Source: an uncultured Thermoplasmatales archaeon (GTDB taxonomy: Archaea > Thermoplasmatota > E2 > DHVEG-1). From it: DNA of 42,070 nucleotides. Location: the NCBI GenBank assembly GCA_964517155.1, contig CAZFAZ010000037.1, forward strand, positions 1 to 42,070. Reading direction: 5' to 3'. Shown here in pieces: positions 5,272 to 25,670 of this stretch. The translations under genes were made by a program, and so were the position numbers. The first letter of the stretch is position 1; the number at the start of each line of letters is the position of its first letter. The notes under the pieces are model-generated. The model saw nothing but the letters and a program-made list of their open reading frames with translations, was not told where the DNA came from and did not search any database.

Positions 5272-5927
5272 AAAAAGTATCAATAGGTGTAATCGATATT
5301 CAAGGCGCAGTAACCGAACATATGCACTCCATGAAACAGGCTTTAAAAGAAGTAAATATTACTGGAGAAGTTTTTGCAATACGTGAAAAAGAAGATCTTA
5401 TAAAAGTAAATGCTTTGATAATACCTGGTGGAGAAAGCACAACTATTTCAAGAATACTATTAAAAAAAGGTATATATGAAGAAATTTTAAAACGTTTAGA
5501 AAAAAAAGATATCGCAATTATGGGAACATGTGCAGGATGTGTTCTTCTAAGTAAAAAAATCATTGATAATAAAAAAGAAATAAAAATCCTTAATGCAATG
5601 GATATAGAAGTTAAAAGAAACGCTTTTGGAAGTCAAAGAGAATCTTTTGAACAAAAAATAAAGATAAAAGGTTTTTCAAAACCTTATAATGCTGTTTTTA
5701 TACGTGCACCAATAATCGAAAAAATATACAATAACTGTGAAATCCTTGCAAAAATAGAAAATAAAATAATAATGGCTAGGCAGGATAACCTGCTAGCTAT
5801 TTCTTTTCATCCTGAACTTACAGACGACCTGCGAGTTCATAAATATTTTTTAGATATGGTTTTAAGCTTTCATTATCGCCATCAAAAATATTCCAAGAGC
5901 AACTGCTGCTCCAACAATAGCGCCTAG
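5265..5927 (+). CDS. pdxT: PLP synthase glutaminase subunit
   Basis: PGGESTT, GTCAG and FHPEL motifs; overlaps the pdxS stop. Confidence 0.97.
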
Positions 5928-6188
5928 GATAGCAATAACGCCCTGAAGTATTGTATCTTTAAAGTACAACATTCCTCCTTCTTGAGGTGCACCTAGCATT
6001 CCTTCAAGCCATCCAGCGCCCCACATAAATATGACAAATACCAATATCCCAATAGCAATTAGTATCCCGCCAACAATTCGGCTTTTACCTGAGCCAAAAT
6101 AAGCCGTGAAAATACCTGCTATTATGCTTGCTATCCCAAATACTAGCACCATCATACTCAAAAATTGAGCTAACCAATATACTTCCAT
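5862..6188 (-). CDS. Small Gly-rich three-helix membrane protein of unknown function
   Basis: Three hydrophobic segments; GGAGG SD upstream; follows the Lrp-domain gene. Confidence 0.75.
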   Translation of the reverse strand: MEVYWLAQFLSMMVLVFGIASIIAGIFTAYFGSGKSRIVGGILIAIGILVFVIFMWGAGWLEGMLGAPQEGGMLYFKDTILQGVIAILGAIVGAAVALGIFLMAIMKA

Positions 6189-6202: not shown

Positions 6203-6448
6203 TTAAAATTTTGTACCTGTTAATGTTTTAGTGTCAATTACACCTTCAATTGATCTGATACGGTCGACAACGATTTTGCCTAGTTTTTCAAAGTCATCTG
6301 CCTTTATCTTTGCAATTAAATCGTATTCTCCAAATAAGGGATGTAATTCAACTATCTCTGGTACTTTAGACAGTTTGTTATATACGTCATGTTCGCGTGC
6401 AGGTGCTGCACTTATTAACACAAAACCTATTGCCATTTGTTTTTTCAC
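6203..6448 (-). CDS. Stand-alone Lrp/AsnC ligand-binding (RAM) domain protein
   Basis: LFGEYDLIAKI and IRSIEGVIDTKTL motifs with no HTH. The start is GTG 6448 or ATG 6436. Confidence 0.88.
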   Translation of the reverse strand: MKKQMAIGFVLISAAPAREHDVYNKLSKVPEIVELHPLFGEYDLIAKIKADDFEKLGKIVVDRIRSIEGVIDTKTLTGTKF

Positions 6449-6519: not shown

Positions 6520-7035
6520 CTATTTTTCGTCTTTTATTTTGATATTTATTGATTTCTTTTTTATCGTAACTATCTTTTTAATTTCCAACTTTAAGTCTTT
6601 ATCAATTTGGTATTCGTCTATTGGTTTCTCTGGCAAAATACCATTTACCTCGTAGATGTAATAACCGTTATCATCATTAATTGATTTTATGTAACCTTTA
6701 GCTCCTTGCTTTTTTACTTCTATGCCAGGTATCTGTTTTAATGCATCAAAAAGATTCTTATTTTTATTTATCACAATTGTTTGCGATTCAATAAACGGAT
6801 CTAATGCTTCTTCCATATTTTTGATGTTAGTCTTCAGGAGGTAGATATTACCAATAATTTTTTTGTTTATTAATCCTGCTTTTTCAAGTATTTTTATATG
6901 TCTTGATACAACAGGTTTTGATAAACCTATCTTTTTTGCAAGTGCCGTTAGATGTATTTCTTCATTTGCAAGCATCTTAAGGATTTTTATTCTTGTTGAA
7001 CTGCTAAGTGCTTTAAACAAGTATTCGTTACCCAT
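6520..7035 (-). CDS. ArsR-family wHTH regulator with C-terminal DUF4430/transcobalamin-like domain
   Basis: N-terminal LFKALSSSTRIKIL...VSRHIKILEKAGLI. The C-terminal YIKSIN..GYYIYEVNG..IDEYQI resembles the neighbouring DUF4430 protein. Confidence 0.8.
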   Translation of the reverse strand: MGNEYLFKALSSSTRIKILKMLANEEIHLTALAKKIGLSKPVVSRHIKILEKAGLINKKIIGNIYLLKTNIKNMEEALDPFIESQTIVINKNKNLFDALKQIPGIEVKKQGAKGYIKSINDDNGYYIYEVNGILPEKPIDEYQIDKDLKLEIKKIVTIKKKSINIKIKDEK

Positions 7036-7038
7036 ATT

Positions 7039-7054
7039 GATAACAATCGTTATC
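7039..7054. promoter_or_regulatory. Inverted repeat GATAAC-N4-GTTATC, candidate operator
   Basis: Perfect 6-bp arms lying 3 nt from the regulator start codon. Confidence 0.5.
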
Positions 7055-7060
7055 TAAAAT

Positions 7061-7078
7061 GTAAGATTTTAATCTTAC
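7061..7078. promoter_or_regulatory. Inverted repeat GTAAGATT-TT-AATCTTAC overlapping probable TATA boxes of both divergent genes
   Basis: Perfect 8-bp arms centred in the 62-bp divergent intergenic region. Confidence 0.65.
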
Positions 7079-7097
7079 GGTTTTTTTACATATAAAT

Positions 7098-7574
7098 ATG
7101 AATAAAAAAGAAAACAGCACACTAAAAGCAGTTATTATATCAGTTATACCGCTAATTATAGTAATAGCAATTTTTGCAACCGCAATAAATATGGGAATAA
7201 TGACTGATACAAACAATAAAATAAATAACATATCAAATAATAAAAACACAGGCGATCTAGAAGAAATAACTGCAACAATTACAATAGATTTTGGAAACGA
7301 AACAACTAAAACACATGAAATAAAAACTACCAATGCAACAGCATATCATTTCTTAATAGAAGCAGCTAAATTAGAAGGATACGGCATTAAAACAACATAC
7401 TATGCAATATATGACAGTATCTTAGTCGAATCCATTTCAAATATCGAAAACGGACAAGACAACAAATACTGGATTTACTACATAAATGGTGAATCAGGAG
7501 CTATTTCTGCAGACAAACAAATAATAGAAAATAACGATATAATAGAATGGAGATTTGAAGAATTCACATATTAA
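7098..7574 (+). CDS. Membrane-anchored DUF4430 (transcobalamin-like beta-grasp) protein
   Basis: N-terminal TM helix; LVESISNIENG..KYWIYYING..SAD..IENNDIIEW motif. Confidence 0.85.
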   Translation: MNKKENSTLKAVIISVIPLIIVIAIFATAINMGIMTDTNNKINNISNNKNTGDLEEITATITIDFGNETTKTHEIKTTNATAYHFLIEAAKLEGYGIKTTYYAIYDSILVESISNIENGQDNKYWIYYINGESGAISADKQIIENNDIIEWRFEEFTY

Positions 7575-7624
7575 AAAAAGAAAGTTAATAAACAAGATTT
7601 AGATTAATATATGGAGGGAAAAAA

Positions 7625-8239
7625 ATGATAAAAAAAATAATTGATGAAAAAAACAGGCTGATAGCCGCCTTAACACTAATTTTATTAGGTGCAATATGCA
7701 GAGTTTTATTAAAAGGAGTTATAATAGATGTATTCTTTGTAATCGCCGTAGTATCTATACTAAGTGGCTTACTACTTGGCGGTTATTACACATTTATAGT
7801 TCCAATTTCAATAATGATGATAACTGATTTAATAATCGGAAACAACATGATATTCTTGTTCACATGGTCAGGATTTGCAATACTTGCAACAATCGGATAT
7901 ATATTAAAATCAAAAAAGAGCCTAACAATAAAAAAAGCACCGATGATAATAGGCTCAGGCATAGCAGGAATACTAATATATGATATCTGGACAAACTTTG
8001 GCTGCTGGCTTGGCTGGTACCCACACACACTTGAAGGACTTACAACCTGCTACACAGCCGCAATACCTTTCATGTTATGGCATCTACTTACAACAACAAT
8101 TGCACTTACTGCAGTAATAATACCTCTAACACTATTAAACAAAGACGAAGATATAAGAATAAAACCACTAAAAAAACATACAACAATCGCAATACCTGCA
8201 ATGATAATGATTGCAGCGATAATAAGTCTAATAGTCTAA
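7625..8239 (+). CDS. ECF S-component-like membrane protein (DUF6580/CbrT-like), putative corrinoid transporter
   Basis: About 6-7 TM helices; TNFGCW..YPHTLEGL..CY.AAIPF motif; GGAGG SD. Confidence 0.72.
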   Translation: MIKKIIDEKNRLIAALTLILLGAICRVLLKGVIIDVFFVIAVVSILSGLLLGGYYTFIVPISIMMITDLIIGNNMIFLFTWSGFAILATIGYILKSKKSLTIKKAPMIIGSGIAGILIYDIWTNFGCWLGWYPHTLEGLTTCYTAAIPFMLWHLLTTTIALTAVIIPLTLLNKDEDIRIKPLKKHTTIAIPAMIMIAAIISLIV

Positions 8240-10856: not shown

Positions 10857-13800
10857 TTATTTCTTTTTACCAAACAGAAGAATTGCCATAACTAGTATTA
10901 CTACCAAAACCAATATTACAACTATAAATAGTGGCATTCCAAAAAACAACGCTGGTTTTTCACGAGCATATGGATAACTTGTTGCACCAAAAGGCATATG
11001 ACCATTTATAGAAAGTTCTGCATCATATTTTATAGGACGAGTTTCGTCTTTTTCCCAATAATTATTATCACTGTATTCTGTACTTGGGACATACATTCTT
11101 AAATTTGGATCTCCAAAGTATACAACATTTTGAGCATCATCCCACCACCATTGCGGACCATCTTTACCACCACCTAAATATAAATTACCGACTGTACTCA
11201 TCCCGCGAGTATAGGCCTCACCAACTGTATAACCAAGTATTATATCACGGGGAATAGATTGCCTCCAAATAGCACCATACCATGATGTCGGCCAAGGATC
11301 TTGCACCTGGAATACTGAACCATGTCTAATCATCATCAAATGTAAATAAGTATTACTTGTTTGACATATACTTGTTACAAAACCCACTGAATAGATATTT
11401 TCAAGGCCTTCTTCAATTTGTAATGCATTTTTATCTACAAGTGGATATCTAGAAAAAGAAACAGTTCCAATAAGACCATCATATAGATTATCTGTATCAA
11501 ATGGATCAATAAAAGGTATAACTTGGTTTAATTTTTCCCGGATTGGTTTTCTTGCGAGAACCCAATCCATACCTGTAGCAGGAATTATCAAAGAATTATG
11601 ATTTGTAAAAGGCATCATTCCTTTAATATCCATAGTCATGGTATCAGGTTCTTGTGTACTTCCCAAATACCAGTCATATCCACGCCAAGGATTTACCTCA
11701 TACTTTGCACCAGCAAGTATTCCTGCGAGTTTATGATTCTCTCCAAAACCAGTATCAACATCCCAAAACAGCGTTCTTCCACCTTCCTGCTGTGTACCAT
11801 GAGATGCATGTATCCATAATAAAACTCCTTGATTTAAATTATTTTGCACTGCCTGTAAATTTGTTGAAAAAGCTGTATCAAAACCTCCTTTATTCAGGTA
11901 AAATGGCACTATTTCAGTTTCAGTCATATCTGGAAAATACATCCCTGCATCTCCAGTATACTTTTCATTCACACCTTGGTCAATATGCTGCATACTTGCA
12001 GTCTCACCTGGAACTCTTCCATCCGCACATTCATATTTTGTTTCATAATATGCACTTGCACGCTCGTTGAAACGATGTTTATGAGTCACAAATGAACATA
12101 AAACAGGAAAATCATATTTTTCTTCTCCGCCCTCTTTCACAACTAAAGTATTTAAATACGGTTTTTGAAACAAACCAAGAAGTCCTCCTCTTTCACTTTT
12201 ACTACCATTAATTAAGTTTACTGAACCTTTTAATGCAGGATTTTCAAAAATAAGCGCTGGATAAAACATACTCCTTGAAATAGACACCGCTGTATCAACA
12301 GGTGTTCCACAGAACCTGCCTGAATTTGCAACACCTACAAATACTCTATCCCATGAAACGCCTATATCATACTGATCTGCAACAGTAACTATGGTTTCAT
12401 CACCTGGTTTGTCAAAACCATACTTACCAAGAAAATCATAAACTCTAGCCCCTGTAAGAGACATCTCTGCAACAGATGGTTTATAGTTATATCGCTCAGC
12501 AGAATATCTCCTCCAAAATTCATTATGCCATACTGCTGCTGATGAAAGTTCAGGGTGATTGTCAATAATTAAAACAGGTGTTCCATGATGAGCAGCAATA
12601 TATGCAGCAGGACCTAAAAATAATCCTGCGTCTGTTTCATCACCTGGTTTAAGCTCTGCAACATACCATTTTGTCCAAGGATCAATTGTTGTAAAAACAA
12701 TACTATTACTACCTGTATCATTTAGTATATCTGTATATATATCCTCAAGTTTTAGATAGTTTTTTTCAATTTTTGCTATCTTTGTTAGTTCGTCAAATAT
12801 TTCTTTGTTTAAATTTTTATTTATATCAACAATATAAATATTTTTAACACCAAGTGTATACAAAGCATTACTTGTACATTCAGATAAACTATCAGCTTTA
12901 GTATAAAGCAATGGTGCATTTAGGTTACTTGCAAGAACCGCGCCATTACTTGCCGAAGCCAAAGAATCTGCTTTTTTTTCAGGTATTTCTTGTTTAAAAC
13001 TATATTCTAATGTAAAATCCACAGGTATTGTAACATCATTTAAAGAAAAAACAGATACTTTATAGCTTTCATCAGGTAAACATTCACCCAAGAAATCTAT
13101 TGTCATTTCCTGATTTTTTGTTTTACTTTCATTAATTTCTGTGTATATTGCCTCACCGCCAGGTCCAATAAGTGTAAAACCTAATACAACATCGGGATTG
13201 TTCCATGAAAGTTTAAATTCTGCATCTCTGCATCCAAAAGGAGGAGCATCAGGTAACTCAAAAGTAATCCCTGGAAACAATGTTATATCAACATGATAAT
13301 TAACAACTGGTTTAAAAAAATTGAAAAGAGATCCTTGCAACTGAAAAAGATTGGGAATACCACTACGCGGTGCATCAGACTCTGTTGGAAAATCAGTAAT
13401 TGTAACACGCCAATCTCCTGGACTATAAACATATGATTTTGTAATTTCATGACCTGCAGGATAATAAATATTCCAAGCAGCGGTCGCAACAGTCTGCATC
13501 CATTTATCATCTTTTTTGCAATATAATTGAATATCTGGGTCACCTGTAGGAAGCATAGTTCCTGCAACTAACATTCCATCCCACCATGCTTCTGCTTCTA
13601 TGAAACAGTACTTTTCATCAACTTCAAAAAATGCACTTACCGGATTTAATCTATTTGTCTGTTCAACATTAAACGTTTCAAGCTTTTTTATTTTATTTGC
13701 AGGCAACTGTTTTTTAATTTCATTATGTTTTTCTTGCAGATCTAAATTATCAAATGTTTCTTGAGAAACTGCAATTACAGCATTATCACTATAACTCCAA

Positions 13801-14324
13801 TCACTAAGAGCTATTTTACTTGCAATTTCATAAATATCTTCACCCGTAATCTCGACTATTTCATCTGCACGCCATTCAGGAGTTATTTTTTCTGCTCCAA
13901 GATTTATAAGAGTCATTTGATCTAATTTACCATTACAATAACTCATATAATCTTGCATAAAATAGTAGATACCAGTATATGCATCAAGAGAACGATACTT
14001 ATCATCGTTATATTCTAACTTATCTTGATAAAATAATAAAGGATGCGAAAAAAGTTTATTCTGTTCATTAAAAATAGCAGTTGGAATACTTGCTAGATAT
14101 GCATAATCATCAATATAACTATCTTCATCAAAATTTACAAAAGTCACCTTTTTCATAGGAACAACACTTGTATAAGAAGGACCTTTATCAAAACCCTGAT
14201 ATACACCTGTATCTAAACCCTGAATCAACGGTGCAAAACTACCTGCTAAAAAAAGAATTACTATCATTAATAATATAACTTTTTTTGATTTATCTTTAAA
14301 TTTTAACACAAGCTTTTCCCCCAA
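10857..14324 (-). CDS. Large secreted, C-terminally anchored protein with CWB2-like repeats and gingipain/C25-like peptidase domain (paralog 1)
   Basis: Signal peptide; ADSLASA..LNAPLLYT; HASHG...SICQ...GEAY...YFGDP; C-terminal TM plus KKK. Confidence 0.7.
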   Translation of the reverse strand: MGEKLVLKFKDKSKKVILLMIVILFLAGSFAPLIQGLDTGVYQGFDKGPSYTSVVPMKKVTFVNFDEDSYIDDYAYLASIPTAIFNEQNKLFSHPLLFYQDKLEYNDDKYRSLDAYTGIYYFMQDYMSYCNGKLDQMTLINLGAEKITPEWRADEIVEITGEDIYEIASKIALSDWSYSDNAVIAVSQETFDNLDLQEKHNEIKKQLPANKIKKLETFNVEQTNRLNPVSAFFEVDEKYCFIEAEAWWDGMLVAGTMLPTGDPDIQLYCKKDDKWMQTVATAAWNIYYPAGHEITKSYVYSPGDWRVTITDFPTESDAPRSGIPNLFQLQGSLFNFFKPVVNYHVDITLFPGITFELPDAPPFGCRDAEFKLSWNNPDVVLGFTLIGPGGEAIYTEINESKTKNQEMTIDFLGECLPDESYKVSVFSLNDVTIPVDFTLEYSFKQEIPEKKADSLASASNGAVLASNLNAPLLYTKADSLSECTSNALYTLGVKNIYIVDINKNLNKEIFDELTKIAKIEKNYLKLEDIYTDILNDTGSNSIVFTTIDPWTKWYVAELKPGDETDAGLFLGPAAYIAAHHGTPVLIIDNHPELSSAAVWHNEFWRRYSAERYNYKPSVAEMSLTGARVYDFLGKYGFDKPGDETIVTVADQYDIGVSWDRVFVGVANSGRFCGTPVDTAVSISRSMFYPALIFENPALKGSVNLINGSKSERGGLLGLFQKPYLNTLVVKEGGEEKYDFPVLCSFVTHKHRFNERASAYYETKYECADGRVPGETASMQHIDQGVNEKYTGDAGMYFPDMTETEIVPFYLNKGGFDTAFSTNLQAVQNNLNQGVLLWIHASHGTQQEGGRTLFWDVDTGFGENHKLAGILAGAKYEVNPWRGYDWYLGSTQEPDTMTMDIKGMMPFTNHNSLIIPATGMDWVLARKPIREKLNQVIPFIDPFDTDNLYDGLIGTVSFSRYPLVDKNALQIEEGLENIYSVGFVTSICQTSNTYLHLMMIRHGSVFQVQDPWPTSWYGAIWRQSIPRDIILGYTVGEAYTRGMSTVGNLYLGGGKDGPQWWWDDAQNVVYFGDPNLRMYVPSTEYSDNNYWEKDETRPIKYDAELSINGHMPFGATSYPYAREKPALFFGMPLFIVVILVLVVILVMAILLFGKKK
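10936..11063. repeat. Direct repeat copy 1 (126/128 identical to 14500-14627)
   Basis: Direct alignment of the two tracts shows two mismatches. Confidence 0.93.
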
Positions 14325-14417: not shown

Positions 14418-17400
14418 TTATTTTTTCTTACGACCAATGAATGCTATAACTATTACAAGCAGTATTATAACTAATAATAATACGAAGATAACTAGCGGTA
14501 TTCCAAAAAACAACGCTGGTTTTTCACGAGCATATGGATAACTTGTTGCACCAAAAGGCATATGGCCATTTATAGAAAGTTCTGCATCATATTTTATAGG
14601 ATGAGTTTCGTCTTTTTCCCAATAATTTTGAGCTTCATAATCGTATTCTGTACTTGGTGTCCAAACACGAAGATCAGGATCGCCATAGAATACAACGTTT
14701 TCATTTAAGTCCCACCACCATTGGTCGACTAGATACTGTATTCCTACTTCAGCCATTCCTTCTTCATATGCTTGACCTATTGTTTTACCGAGTGCTAATG
14801 CTCGGGGTATATTATGTAACCATATACCACTATACCAAGAAGTTGACCATGGGTCTAAGATTTGATATGGTGTACCGTGTCTTATGAGAGTCGTATGTAG
14901 ATAAGTATGCGCAACAAGACATGATACTGCATTAAGACCACAGCTGTGTAAGTTTCCTAAATCATCATCAAAATTTATACCATTTCTACCAGTTAAAACG
15001 TTTTCACCGCCTGGTAATGGATCTATTACTACACCATCGTCACCATATGCTCTGAATTGCCTACCAATAATGGGTATTAAACTTAGCCCTTTTGACTCCT
15101 TAATATGATAATCAACGCGAAATGCATCACAGAATATAGACACAGGTACTTGAGGGTTCATAACTGCAACATCCGGATCCTCTGTGCTGCCCCAATCAAC
15201 TGCTAAAAGATTAATAGGTGTTGTTAAAATGCTTCCTAATTTGAATAACAAACTAAAAGAAGGCATCCCCATCTCATGCAATAATTCTGGAGTATACTGT
15301 GTAAACTCTTTAAGAGTACCCGCAGATACAAGAGGTCTCTCATAAGCACGCCACGGGTTTTCTTCATAGACATAAGGACTTTCTGTATTCCAAAAGCCAA
15401 GGTTTCCATAATTACCATTTCCGCCATGGCAGCTTTCCATCCACATTATTACACCTTTGTTTAGATTTTCTACCGCTACGTCATAGTTTGTCGAAAAACA
15501 ATTACTGTAACCTGCTTTTTGACCATAAAAAGGTACAGCATATGTCTCATGTATATCTGGATAAAACGCTCCTACTTTATCTGTCGCTCCATTATCAATA
15601 GAATAAGGAGATGCTGTTTCATAAGGTATGACGCCATTTGCAGTTGTATACATACCTCCCCAGTGATTGCTTGCTACCTTGTTAAAATCAATTAAGTAAA
15701 CATTGTATGTATGCAATATTGGATAAGTATATTGTTCTTCTTGAGATTCGCGAATTATTCTTAAATCTGTACCTAAAGGTTTCATAAGTTTTCCAAGTAT
15801 TGGAACAACGGTACTTTTACTACCATTGACTAATGTAACTTCACCTTGAAGTGCTGGATTTTCAAATATTAGTGCTGGATAAAAGAAGTTTCTTGATGAC
15901 CAATAAGCAATATCCACTGGAGAACTACAAAAACGACCAGGTATAACTCTTCCTGTAAACGTTCTATCCCATGTAGCACCAATGTCAAATTGATCTGCAA
16001 CAGTAATCATTGTTGCAAGTTCTTCTTTATTTTTAGGTAGATCAAAGCCCATAGATTCTAAGAAGCTTATTACATTTCTACCCGTAAGAACCATACAAGC
16101 AACAGATGGAAGGTTAGGCCTATATTGATCATTTGCAGTTTTTCTCCAAAATTCTGTATGCCAAACAACAGCCTGTGAAAGTTCTGGATGATTATCAACG
16201 ATAACAACAGGCGAACCATGATGAGCAGCAATGTACGCTGCGGGACCTATAAATAATGCACCAGGATATTCATCTACTGGAACTGCATCTAACGAATAAT
16301 AATAGGTCCAAGGATCAACGGTTGAAATTATAATATCGTTACTGCCTGTGCGATCTCTTATTTCATCATAAATTTCTTTGTATTGATTGAAAGTTGTAAC
16401 TTCGCCAACTTGTTCTAATTCATCACATACTTCACCTGATGCATAGTTGCCTAAATCTACAAAGTAAATATTTTCGATGCCTAATTTGTATAGTACATCG
16501 CTAGTAACTTCTGGCACAGCATCTTTAGTTATGTAAAGTAAAGGTACATTTAATGTGCTTGCAAGAACTGATCCTTCCGTTGCACTAGCAAGCATATCGC
16601 CTCGCTCACGTGTATAATTTTGCTTCCAACTATAGCTAACTTCAAAGCTAAGATCACTTTTTATATCATCAAGAGAAAAGACACATATCTTATATTTATC
16701 AGTTTTAGAAGTCTCTCCTAATTTTTCAAGTTCTATATCAAGTTCAGTAGCCCCTCTCTCAATACCGGTTACTATTTCATCATTAGATGGAACAGAAGCT
16801 GTCTCTGCACCGGTAGGGTCTAGAACTAAAAAGCCTAGAGCAACATTTGGATTATTCCATTCAAGAGTAAATTCAATATCTCTGCAACCATATGGAACAG
16901 CATCATCTATTTCAACTTCTACACCAGGATATAAGTAAATTTCTACATCTTGTTTGTTACTTCCACCTAATGCTGTTTTTGAGAATAAACCTGTTGGTTC
17001 TTCAACTGTTTTAAAGTTTGATTCCATTAGTCCTTTATCAGCAGAACGCTGTGTTGGCATATATGTTACACCAACTTCCCATTTACCATAGTTGTATACA
17101 TATGAACTAGCTGTTTCACCTGCACCATAGAAAATGTTCCATTTTGAATCAGCATCAGCCATACCTAGCTGGTTATCATAAAGTTGTAGATCAAGATCTA
17201 TCGCCACATTATCCCAAAGCATGTTTGCTATAACATATTTGTAAGGCGAGTTTATTTCAAAGTCTTCATAGTTTCCACCTACACCTATAGTAGGGGTTTC
17301 CATCTGAAAAGTGAAATCTTTTGTATCATATCCTGCAGGTATAACACCCTTGATTACACCTTCATGTTCAATGTTTGGCGATTCAAATTCTTCATCAATT

Positions 17401-17942
17401 ACTGCGATTACTGCATCTTTTGAATAACTCCAATCATTAAGAGCAATATTACCAGCAACCTCATAAATATCATCACCAGAAATCTCAACAACCTCATCAG
17501 CACTCCACTCAGAATTTACCTCATCAACATCAAGATTCACAAGAGTCATCTGATCAAGCTTACCATTACAATAACTCATATAATCCTCCATAAAATAATT
17601 AATACCTGGGTAAGTGTCAAGTATTCTATATTTATCATCATCATAGTCTAGTTTATCTTGATAAAACAATAATGGATGCGAAAAAAGTCTACCTTGATCT
17701 TTAAAAACAGCAGTTGGAACACTTGCAAGATACGCATAATCATCAATTAATGTTTCTTCATCAAAATTTACAAAAGTTACCTTCTTCATAGGAACAACCG
17801 AAGTATACGATGGTCCTTTATCAAAACCGTCAATTCTATCAATATCTTTTGCATTTACCAAAGGTACTAGCATGCCTAAAGTTAATGCAGCTACTACTAA
17901 TACTGCAAAAAAACTTTTTTTAAAATTTTTTTTATTTATCAT
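14418..17942 (-). CDS. Large secreted, C-terminally anchored protein with CWB2-like repeats and gingipain/C25-like peptidase domain (paralog 2)
   Basis: Signal peptide; GDMLASA..LNVPLLYI; ESCHG...VSCL...GQAY...FYGDP; C-terminal TM plus RKKK; colinear with paralog 1. Confidence 0.7.
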   Translation of the reverse strand: MINKKNFKKSFFAVLVVAALTLGMLVPLVNAKDIDRIDGFDKGPSYTSVVPMKKVTFVNFDEETLIDDYAYLASVPTAVFKDQGRLFSHPLLFYQDKLDYDDDKYRILDTYPGINYFMEDYMSYCNGKLDQMTLVNLDVDEVNSEWSADEVVEISGDDIYEVAGNIALNDWSYSKDAVIAVIDEEFESPNIEHEGVIKGVIPAGYDTKDFTFQMETPTIGVGGNYEDFEINSPYKYVIANMLWDNVAIDLDLQLYDNQLGMADADSKWNIFYGAGETASSYVYNYGKWEVGVTYMPTQRSADKGLMESNFKTVEEPTGLFSKTALGGSNKQDVEIYLYPGVEVEIDDAVPYGCRDIEFTLEWNNPNVALGFLVLDPTGAETASVPSNDEIVTGIERGATELDIELEKLGETSKTDKYKICVFSLDDIKSDLSFEVSYSWKQNYTRERGDMLASATEGSVLASTLNVPLLYITKDAVPEVTSDVLYKLGIENIYFVDLGNYASGEVCDELEQVGEVTTFNQYKEIYDEIRDRTGSNDIIISTVDPWTYYYSLDAVPVDEYPGALFIGPAAYIAAHHGSPVVIVDNHPELSQAVVWHTEFWRKTANDQYRPNLPSVACMVLTGRNVISFLESMGFDLPKNKEELATMITVADQFDIGATWDRTFTGRVIPGRFCSSPVDIAYWSSRNFFYPALIFENPALQGEVTLVNGSKSTVVPILGKLMKPLGTDLRIIRESQEEQYTYPILHTYNVYLIDFNKVASNHWGGMYTTANGVIPYETASPYSIDNGATDKVGAFYPDIHETYAVPFYGQKAGYSNCFSTNYDVAVENLNKGVIMWMESCHGGNGNYGNLGFWNTESPYVYEENPWRAYERPLVSAGTLKEFTQYTPELLHEMGMPSFSLLFKLGSILTTPINLLAVDWGSTEDPDVAVMNPQVPVSIFCDAFRVDYHIKESKGLSLIPIIGRQFRAYGDDGVVIDPLPGGENVLTGRNGINFDDDLGNLHSCGLNAVSCLVAHTYLHTTLIRHGTPYQILDPWSTSWYSGIWLHNIPRALALGKTIGQAYEEGMAEVGIQYLVDQWWWDLNENVVFYGDPDLRVWTPSTEYDYEAQNYWEKDETHPIKYDAELSINGHMPFGATSYPYAREKPALFFGIPLVIFVLLLVIILLVIVIAFIGRKKK
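14500..14627. repeat. Direct repeat copy 2
   Basis: Near-identical to 10936-11063. Confidence 0.93.
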
Positions 17943-24638: not shown

Positions 24639-25670
24639 ATGTCTAAACTAACACTTGATATGAATACATTCAAAGCACTTGCATCTGATACAAGGCTTGA
24701 TATTTTACGCGCTCTTGATGGTAAAAAATTAAGTTTAAACGATATCTGCAAAGCAACAAACCTTAACAAGGCAACTCTTCATGAGCATCTGATAAAACTT
24801 AATGAGGCAGGTCTTGTTAAAAAGAATGAGCGAGAAGGACATAAATGGGTATACTATAAACTTACATGGAAGGGTGAAGGGCTTCTTCATCCAGAAAATA
24901 CTAGAATTGTTGTAATGTTCAGTAGTACATTTATTTCTTTATTAATTGCAGTTATACTTATAGTAAATTTTTTACAGCCCATTCCTATAGGAATTGCTGA
25001 GACGATAAATGATACAACATATCTTTATGAAGTAGAATCTGCAGGTATTCCTATACTAGGTGAAAAAAGTTATAATTTCAGATATCTTGCAGAGGTTGAT
25101 GCAAGAGAAAAAACTGTGGAAAATATAACAGTGACGCTTCAGCAAAATGCTCTTCCTACGAACAGCATAGGATATACTTACGATCAGGCCGATATAGTTT
25201 GGTTTAATATAGAATCTGCAAATATACAAAATTTTGATGATGCCTGCGGTGATAAGTATATCTTATCTGCAGAGCAATCTAATCAAAAGTTAAAGATCGA
25301 AACAGATTGTGCACATATCCCCAATCAACAAAATATGGTATATGTAATATTTGAAGAGAAATATATGTTTAATAATGACACAAATATCTCAGCTAAAAAA
25401 ACATTAAAAGGAAATAGTACAGAAGGCAACGAAACAAATGTCTCCCCTAATGATGAATTTGTAAGAGATGAAAACGAAACAAATGAAACTACTTTGGGAT
25501 TTGAATATGGCGAAGGATCTTTACATTTTTACCCCGCAGTTCCAACAATGATAGCAACTGTACAAGATACAACATTACTATATTTAGCAGTTGCGTGTCT
25601 AACATTTTTTACAACATTATTTACTATATCACTTTGGAGATTTAAAGTAAATAAAAAACCTAAACTCTAA
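24639..25670 (+). CDS. Membrane-tethered ArsR-family regulator (wHTH-TM-extracellular domain-TM)
   Basis: FKALASDTRLDIL...LHEHLIKLNEAGLV...YYKLT; two TM helices flank a loop rich in N-x-S/T sequons. Confidence 0.85.
   Translation: MSKLTLDMNTFKALASDTRLDILRALDGKKLSLNDICKATNLNKATLHEHLIKLNEAGLVKKNEREGHKWVYYKLTWKGEGLLHPENTRIVVMFSSTFISLLIAVILIVNFLQPIPIGIAETINDTTYLYEVESAGIPILGEKSYNFRYLAEVDAREKTVENITVTLQQNALPTNSIGYTYDQADIVWFNIESANIQNFDDACGDKYILSAEQSNQKLKIETDCAHIPNQQNMVYVIFEEKYMFNNDTNISAKKTLKGNSTEGNETNVSPNDEFVRDENETNETTLGFEYGEGSLHFYPAVPTMIATVQDTTLLYLAVACLTFFTTLFTISLWRFKVNKKPKL

Follow-up and report, generated by a model that had tools for sequence, protein, structure and literature searches.

How might an archaeon that seems to use vitamin B12 (cobalamin, Cbl) without being able to make it adjust the uptake of this cofactor, when no B12 riboswitch is found in its 90.8% complete genome? 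The question is raised by a locus on an AT-rich, 42,070-nt stretch of DNA from an uncultured Thermoplasmatales archaeon (GTDB lineage Thermoplasmatota; E2; DHVEG-1; NCBI GenBank assembly GCA_964517155.1, contig CAZFAZ010000037.1, positions 1 to 42,070 of the forward strand; this whole stretch is hereafter called the window). Here, a 171-aa regulator composed of an ArsR-type winged helix-turn-helix (wHTH), a transcobalamin-beta-like (DUF4430/SLBB) domain and a Lys-rich tail (6520..7035, minus strand) is encoded divergently from a membrane-anchored, extracellular DUF4430 protein of 158 aa (7098..7574, plus strand) and a polytopic DUF6580 membrane protein of 204 aa, a candidate importer (7625..8239, plus strand). 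The best explanation for this arrangement, to which we would assign a probability of roughly 0.55, is a one-component, corrinoid-sensing local transcription factor controlling an uptake pair. Its ArsR-type winged helix, probably as a dimer, would bind GTTAYC-N6-GATAAC-N4-GTTATC in the 62-bp divergent promoter region, and its cytoplasmic transcobalamin-beta-like domain would sense a corrinoid, cobalamin or a cobamide being the likeliest. Besides its own gene, the regulator would control the divergent operon, whose surface-tethered binder and membrane protein would together capture and import the corrinoid, so that the module as a whole would set uptake by the intracellular B12 level, as B12 riboswitches do in bacteria.

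The DNA-binding half of the regulator is the more readily recognized one. Residues 12-58 (6862..7002, minus strand) match Pfam HTH_5 (PF01022) at 48.3 bits against a cut-off of 22 (E 8.9e-13), which places the protein in the ArsR/SmtB family, and a Foldseek search of the PDB with the full-length AlphaFold2 (AF2) model (mean predicted local distance difference test score, pLDDT, 78.7) returned ArsR/SmtB wHTH proteins only, the first being SrnR (7p6f, E 7.2e-6). The regulator sequence shows neither an evident signal peptide nor an evident membrane segment. Metal-sensing members of the family have either a Cys-rich alpha3 site or an Asp/His alpha5 site, and neither was recognized here: Cys is absent altogether, the only His residues are at positions 28 and 46 (none in residues 60-171), and the helix following the wing (residues 71-81) presumably has no alpha5-type His/Asp site. 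The absence of Cys and the presence of only two His argue against a classical ArsR metal site, and it is in this, as well as in the extra beta-grasp effector domain, that the regulator differs from metalloregulators such as SrnR, CzrA and SmtB, with which it shares the wHTH fold and family, a palindromic operator and probable autoregulation. CarH and LitR, which combine a MerR HTH with the B12-binding domain PF02310 (CarH being a light sensor), are likewise protein transcription factors with cobalamin as the proposed effector, yet they differ from the regulator in both the DNA-binding family and the B12-binding fold, as the C-terminal domain of the latter is DUF4430 and PF02310 is not among the best 25 of the 32 Pfam families matching it at E<=1. 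NCBIfam provided a specific name for none of the three proteins of the locus.

What, then, might the rest of the protein be sensing? Residues 93-147 match Pfam DUF4430 (PF14478; envelope 6595-6759) at 26.4 bits, the cut-off being 23.8 (27.8 bits in the genome-wide repeat of the search), and the effector domain as a whole spans residues ~84-160 (6556..6786, minus strand). Pfam, AF2 and the structure aligner VIA-align together describe an intracellular ArsR wHTH fused to a transcobalamin-clade domain of the SLBB superfamily. An earlier reading made from the sequence alone had aligned this half by eye with the divergently encoded DUF4430 protein (LFDALK with AYHFL, YIKSIN with LVESISN, and GYYIYEVNG with KYWIYYING), and the same register was recovered by hhalign between a profile of 54 regulator C-terminal domains (A2) and one of 27 anchored DUF4430 partner proteins (A4), with a probability of 92% and an E of 6.5e-7 over 63 columns. 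Pairwise BLASTP between regulator and partner was weak, encompassing only the GYYIYEVNG/KYWIYYING stretch (7/11 identities, E 0.006). When compared with PDB sequences, profile A4 found haptocorrin (HC; 4kki, E 0.0031) and the beta domain of transcobalamin (TC; 5no0, E 0.44).

As the full-length model recovered only ArsR proteins, the C-terminal domain was also folded separately (pLDDT 91.6), and all the Foldseek matches listed for it between ranks 1 and 17 were either 3u7z, a bacterial DUF4430 protein, or chains of TC, HC and intrinsic factor (IF), at TM-scores of 0.55-0.65. VIA-align placed 15 TC/HC/IF/3u7z entries at Z 8.9-9.6 (root-mean-square deviation 1.7-2.1 A over 74-75 residues), followed by ThiS at Z 6.5 and 5.1 and other beta-grasps lower still. 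The modelled domain is thereby supported as specifically transcobalamin-beta-like and not as a generic ubiquitin fold; the outcome that the sequence-only reading had named as fatal to itself, another fold or a generic ubiquitin-like one, did not occur, TC/HC/IF and 3u7z leading the remaining beta-grasps by some 3 Z units. Conserved positions of the domain include F96, L99, Q101, P103, Y115, I116, S118, G124, Y128, E129, P135 and P138, and its two most conserved motifs, Y115-I116-x-S118 and G124-Y-Y-I-Y128-E129, align with the SI and aromatic motifs of the extracellular DUF4430 proteins; the conserved segments probably correspond to the Cbl-contacting strands of TC. All solved structural relatives with a known ligand bind corrinoids, the isolated TC beta domain is reported to bind both Cbl and cobinamide (PMC5599065), and it is described as making the first contact with Cbl (PMC11107200). 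The resemblance to the TC/HC/IF beta domains and bacterial DUF4430 proteins (5no0, 5np4, 4kki, 2pmv, 3u7z) lies in the fold and the Pfam match, whereas the domain of the regulator resides in the cytoplasm, is joined to a DNA-binding domain, has no alpha-domain partner and carries a Tyr in place of the conserved Trp of the extracellular DUF4430 proteins.

The idea of an ArsR-DUF4430 B12 sensor is not new. Burroughs, Balaji, Iyer and Aravind, who defined the SLBB superfamily (Biol Direct 2007, PMC1796856), described intracellular transcobalamin-clade SLBB domains fused to ArsR-like wHTH (with a Methanosarcina example) and AraC-like domains, and proposed a one-component sensor of B12, its precursors or another soluble ligand, a referee having asked for the B12 claim to be softened. 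The regulator of the window is a member of the kind predicted there: both are intracellular combinations of an ArsR wHTH and a TC-like beta-grasp from archaeal hosts with a B12-sensing role proposed, and, even if the likeness to the Methanosarcina example is one of description, the window family reaches Methanosarcinales/Methanomicrobia metagenome-assembled genomes (MAGs). That paper presents no operator, regulon or experiment, whereas the window adds the DUF4430 and DUF6580 partners and a host that looks like a B12 auxotroph. The sequence-only reading had stated that no characterized regulator of this architecture was known to it, which stands insofar as no experimental study or follow-up of the 2007 prediction was found in the literature searched (most subscription journals lying outside its coverage), and falls insofar as both the architecture and the B12-sensor proposal had been published. 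Within the same literature, no characterized archaeal B12 sensor was found, nothing was found on DUF6580, and the DUF4430 papers found included none on regulators. The interpretation as a whole fared in a similarly mixed manner: the TC-specific fold, a conserved operator, gene linkage and an auxotrophic host speak for it, and the novelty of the architecture has to be given up along with the energy-coupling factor (ECF) label of the membrane protein discussed below.

If the protein binds DNA, where would it do so? The regulator and DUF4430 genes are separated by 62 bp (7036-7097), which the sequence-only reading had deemed too short for a cobalamin riboswitch; no Rfam family reached its gathering score in the window, and the cobalamin riboswitch RF00174 was not found anywhere in the host genome (1.59 Mb, 91 contigs, 31.8% G+C, with its 90.8% completeness bounding every gene absence given for it here). 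The control for the RF00174 search was positive in 7/14 control genomes, all of them bacterial, and in 0/4 of the archaeal ones. What the gap does contain is a perfect 6-4-6 inverted repeat, GATAAC-N4-GTTATC (7039..7054), which is the predicted operator. A third half-site, GTTACC on the plus strand (7027..7032), lies 6 nt from it over regulator codons 2-3, which fits the near-invariance of N3 (conserved in at least 90% of the regulator sequences). Further towards the DUF4430 gene, an 8-2-8 palindrome (7061..7078) with an A/T-rich, TATA-like core (7066-7073) is conserved in divergent loci and, by archaeal promoter rules, is a probable bidirectional element shared by both genes, consisting of a transcription factor B (TFB) recognition element (BRE) and a TATA box.

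The geometry of these elements was compared across 56 regulator-bearing loci (L numbers) on contigs from a one-genome-per-species collection, the neighbours being called by phmmer, Pfam and custom hidden Markov models; as many of these contigs are short, missing neighbours are soft negatives. In Thermoplasmatota-type loci, the palindrome is fixed at -19 to -4 of the regulator ATG (25/29 sites at that offset score at least 14.8 bits and the other four 1.3-11.4), and an A/T-rich box of the aaAGATTTAAA type is found ~25 nt upstream of it. Where the genes are not divergent, a second copy of the three half-sites precedes the DUF4430 ATG by 43-46 nt in 7/9 loci (L006, L007, L012 at 11.9 bits, L016, L019, L023 and L057, it being absent from L026 and L049) and sits 10-12 nt upstream of a TTTTAA-type box; the corresponding spacing from palindrome to DUF4430 ATG in the window is 44 nt. 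When the operator position weight matrix was run over the 1.59-Mb genome, the window site came out on top (24.4 bits) and was the sole intergenic match of at least 12 bits, the other 14 of the 15 matches lying inside genes, and, since three mononucleotide shuffles gave totals of 31-37, the host regulon is probably limited to this locus. Operator-like sites were also seen in L047, 42 nt before CbiM (12.7 bits), in L043, where the site separates NikR from an unnamed gene (18.9 bits), and, in DPANN-type loci, before large surface proteins consisting of an alpha/alpha-toroid and DUF4430.

With its TATA-like box on one side of the operator and its ATG on the other, the regulator should be autoregulated, and the position of the site over its own transcription start would imply autorepression. 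On the DUF4430 side, the site lies just upstream of the BRE/TATA, where either blocking or recruitment of TFB and the TATA-binding protein would fit, so this placement allows for both activation and occlusion, and the word "repressor", which the sequence-only reading had applied to the uptake operon, claims more than the operator position can establish. It might be speculated that a ligand-free activator which leaves the DNA upon ligand binding would suit both ArsR-type allostery and homeostatic logic.

The two genes presumably under this control form a compact unit. The DUF4430 protein has an anchor at about residues 10-33 and its DUF4430 domain at 80-154 (Pfam E 1.2e-10), and this domain and that of the regulator are the only two DUF4430 domains of the host genome. 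The second protein belongs to DUF6580 (PF20221, E 8e-26) and is single-copy in the host; 50 bases separate the two open reading frames (ORFs), and a GGAGGG at 7613-7618 precedes the DUF6580 ATG by 6 nt. The sequence-only reading had called this protein ECF S-component-like, a label that the searches did not support: the family is DUF6580, only 1/21 of its members weakly matches an S-component model (ECF_trnsprt PF12822, E 0.047), no CbiQ/EcfT (PF02361) match was obtained in the host genome, and EcfT exceeded the cut-off in none of the 53 DUF6580-bearing genomes of the host's order. Comparison of DUF6580 with PDB sequences revealed no relative by single sequence and just a chance thymidine kinase (E 0.1) by profile, and a protein atlas search returned DUF6580 clusters only.

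The order-level figures here and below come from 61 genomes of the host's order (G numbers), which are kin, hence non-independent, and probably overlap the locus set, and the linkage figures among them are hand counts from profile-search rows. CbiQ exceeded the cut-off in three of these genomes (G002, G032 and G034), all of which belong to the eight without DUF6580, and in each of the three a DUF4430-bearing frame of ~330 aa lies directly upstream of CbiQ. This complementary distribution suggests that DUF6580 and an ECF module alternate as partners of the DUF4430 binder. Complex modelling of the two window proteins gave a score of 0.65 (best control 0.01), a value attained by 116/157 solved complexes and by 2/215 mismatched pairs, with at least 69% contact agreement between runs and a partner pLDDT of at least 72; the modelled interface pairs the anchor helix (residues 5-31) with DUF6580 helices (residues 7-51 and 156-177), which supports, and does not show, that the two proteins bind each other. 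BtuM is reportedly a solitary S-component-like protein. As with BtuM and with ECF-CbrT of Lactobacillus delbrueckii, which is encoded in an nrdJ-cbrS-cbrT-pduO cluster and is reported to serve in corrinoid uptake (eLife 2018, PMC5997447), the window offers a small membrane protein, here a candidate one, for corrinoid uptake beside an accessory gene in an apparent B12 auxotroph, a likeness to which the DUF4430 frame directly preceding CbiQ/EcfT in the three relatives without DUF6580 may be added. The difference from ECF-CbrT is that DUF6580 showed no sequence relation to any PDB chain, the ECF-CbrT entry included, and goes without EcfT in all 53 genomes in which it was found.

How steadily do these parts travel together? 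Among the 56 loci, another DUF4430-domain gene adjoins the regulator in 31 and DUF6580 is present in 22, the two being fused in L009 (638-1684); in three more (L002, L018 and L022) the gene divergent from the regulator encodes a surface protein of the prenyltransferase-like alpha/alpha-toroid type, and several such toroid proteins carry DUF4430 together with weak Cobalamin_bind matches, which amounts to a whole-transcobalamin-like layout. Four loci from distant archaea (L037, L040, L047 and L048) adjoin CbiM/CbiQ/CbiO cobalt-transport or corrin/tetrapyrrole methylase genes. In the order sample, the regulator domain occurs in 30/61 genomes, DUF4430 in 54/61 and DUF6580 in 53/61; a further DUF4430 gene is located no more than 3 kb from the regulator in 27/30 genomes (the exceptions being G008, G012 and G042), as is DUF6580 in 18/30, and DUF4430 is either fused to DUF6580 or within 1 kb of it in 46/53. 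A single fused DUF6580-DUF4430 frame of 342-390 aa is found in 24 genomes, only five of which have the regulator, as against 22 of the 23 genomes with a split pair; one genus (g3) has it in 0/12 genomes. These counts are evidence that DUF4430 and DUF6580 form a unit that is independent of ECF and almost ubiquitous in an order whose sampled genomes yielded no cobalamin synthase (CobS over the cut-off in 0/61 genomes).

A word-indexed search for the regulator gave 302 homologues at E<=1e-3, almost all 165-217 aa long, and a two-domain profile run against a library of 1.84 billion representatives gave 21 clusters at E<=1e-30 and 75 at E<=1e-10, the 6317 matches at E<=1e-3 being mostly generic ArsR domains. 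The closest named homologues are from Thermoplasmatales/Thermoplasmatota MAGs, the hosts at large comprise Thermoplasmatota, Hydrothermarchaeota, Methanomicrobia/Methanosarcinales MAGs, Altiarchaeota and DPANN lineages, and source annotations name family members no further than "ArsR family". Two contigs labelled as bacterial MAGs (L051, Falkowbacteria; L052, Chloroflexi) share their arrangement of regulator, toroid-DUF4430 and DUF4430 with L053, an Iainarchaeum contig of that sample series, and could be archaeal sequences that were mis-binned.

Both the use and the exchange of cobamides are widespread among archaea, and the gene content of the host is that of a consumer. On another of its contigs (C77:8684-11254; L060, L068, L073), a CobA-type adenosyltransferase and the large and B12-binding small subunits of methylmalonyl-CoA mutase follow each other on one strand, which, going by gene content, is an operon for activating and using B12; no operator-like site of at least 12 bits was listed on that contig. 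About eight further B12-binding-domain proteins of ~430-445 aa are encoded in the genome, and methylmalonyl-CoA mutase is present in 37/61 genomes of the order. CobS, a PduO-type adenosyltransferase and the corrin methylase set were not found in the host genome, which has a single tetrapyrrole methylase (TP_methylase) only, nor was cytochrome bd oxidase, the sole heme enzyme searched for. Judged by these genes, the host uses B12 while apparently lacking the means to produce it, and would have to import the cofactor; one strong FecCD permease could be a second uptake route. It is in such a host that the proposed module would tune uptake to intracellular B12, the job that RF00174 would do by RNA and the regulator would do as a protein, in either case as B12-dependent control of corrinoid uptake genes.

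A corrinoid-sensing regulator is, of course, not the only way to read these data, and a number of observations weigh against it. Profile A2 on its own found no TC chain among PDB sequences at E<=10, just two chance-level rows (E 0.64 and 1.5); the Foldseek search with the C-terminal domain had no hit at E<=1e-3, the best being 1.4e-2; sequence identity of the domain to TC is 11-15% (9-15% across the TC/HC/IF and DUF4430 structures); and where the extracellular partners invariably have a Trp (W125), the regulators have a Tyr. Classical ArsR proteins leave the DNA upon ligand binding, which is the wrong sign for a simple repressor of an uptake operon. The linkage of the homologues to corrinoid genes, whose absence the sequence-only reading would have counted against itself, is borne out where DUF4430 or cobalt/corrin genes adjoin the regulator, but 25/56 loci are without a DUF4430 neighbour, several of the distant ones lying beside T2SSE ATPases, ThiI, NrdD with AsnC, NikR/NicO or PQQ-type beta-propellers instead (loci with other or unassigned neighbours: L027-L031, L033-L036, L039, L041-L044, L050, L055 and L056). 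Furthermore, the regulator is missing from 31/61 of the related genomes, most of which still have DUF4430 and DUF6580, and is thus dispensable.

Might the same architecture and local regulon serve another ligand, i.e., a different tetrapyrrole (heme or a corrin/porphyrin precursor) or an unrelated soluble metabolite, imported by DUF4430 and DUF6580? We consider this unlikely, albeit worth taking seriously: an ECF operon of Lactobacillus sakei with TC-alpha-like and TC-beta-like proteins is reported to serve heme uptake (bioRxiv 10.1101/864751), so the ligand does not follow from the fold per se, the question of what the HTH-fused forms bind was left open by Burroughs et al. and their referees (PMC1796856), and the replacement of Trp by Tyr and the distant loci beside nickel genes (NikR/NicO; L042, L043) or unrelated ones point the same way. 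Set against this are the clear B12-dependent enzymes and missing CobS of the host, the failure to find the one heme enzyme sought, the cobalt-transport and corrin-methylase genes adjoining distant members, and the corrinoids bound by every solved relative of known ligand. That the beta-grasp binds no small molecule at all, and is an oligomerization or protein-contact module in a local regulator that is constitutive or otherwise controlled, seems rather improbable to us; beta-grasps do often mediate protein contacts, ThiS/MoaD/SAMP-type matches were obtained at Z 4-6.5, and a three-half-site operator suggests higher-order assembly, but such a module would account poorly for the lead of TC/HC/IF/3u7z over other beta-grasps, for conserved motifs shared with extracellular binders, or for the steady pairing with same-fold genes (27/30 genomes), which is what a shared ligand predicts. 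A classical ArsR/SmtB sensor of cobalt or nickel that merely carries an extra domain would explain why the generic metalloregulator model of NCBIfam scores 56.6 against a cut-off of 55, as well as the CbiM/CbiQ or NikR/NicO neighbours in L037, L042, L043 and L047, yet it is very hard to reconcile with a protein without Cys, with His only at 28 and 46 and presumably without an alpha5-type site in residues 71-81, whose regulated genes in the host are not metal transporters.

Returning to the corrinoid-sensing regulator, a bolder version of it can be drawn up, which is tentative and in our view rather less probable than its being false. As the operator is upstream of the target TATA and over the start of the regulator's own transcript, the ligand-free form would activate uptake and repress itself, and the corrinoid would release it from the DNA; DUF4430 and DUF6580 would form a new type of corrinoid importer, one that works without ECF and is present in nearly all members of an order of B12-auxotrophic Thermoplasmatota, with a DUF4430-ECF unit taking its place in the few that lack it, and the whole would be an archaeal protein answer to the missing B12 riboswitch. 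The main additions to what had been predicted in 2007 are the three-half-site operator with its fixed geometry at both promoters, the regulon probably confined to the locus, and the ECF-independent DUF4430-DUF6580 unit, and they make the locus a compact test case for that prediction: a 171-aa protein, a 28-bp operator, a two-gene target and a host whose gene content would require B12 import. If the reading is true, the binding fold of animal B12 carriers doubles as a cytoplasmic sensor, and DUF6580 gains a function as a corrinoid importer.

Some further observations concern the surroundings of the regulator. Directly downstream of it, a gene for an 81-aa stand-alone Lrp/AsnC ligand-binding (RAM) domain with no HTH (6203-6448, minus strand, E 1.7e-15) is followed by one for a 108-aa membrane protein (5862-6188, minus strand), both of which may be co-transcribed with the regulator. 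An AsnC-family gene adjoins the regulator in L034-L036 too, and, in Hydrothermarchaeota-type loci (L034-L036, L042-L043), the regulator either has anaerobic ribonucleotide reductase NrdD and an AsnC regulator nearby or is directly flanked by NikR together with a NicO-like nickel/cobalt permease. In two other, distant loci (L031:770-2326 and L046:4118-5884), the divergent gene encodes not a DUF4430 protein but a secreted PQQ-type beta-propeller with dockerin or CARDB, in L046 with an operator-like site 67 nt before it; BtuG of Bacteroides is a beta-propeller B12 binder. Elsewhere in the window, a second ArsR-type HTH protein of 343 aa (24639-25670, plus strand) has a C-terminal part of ~280 aa without a Pfam match, and two tandem ORFs of 1155 and 1174 aa (10857-14324 and 14418-17942, both on the minus strand), neither of which has a Pfam match at E<=1e-5 and the first of which ends in a hydrophobic anchor, may encode surface proteins.

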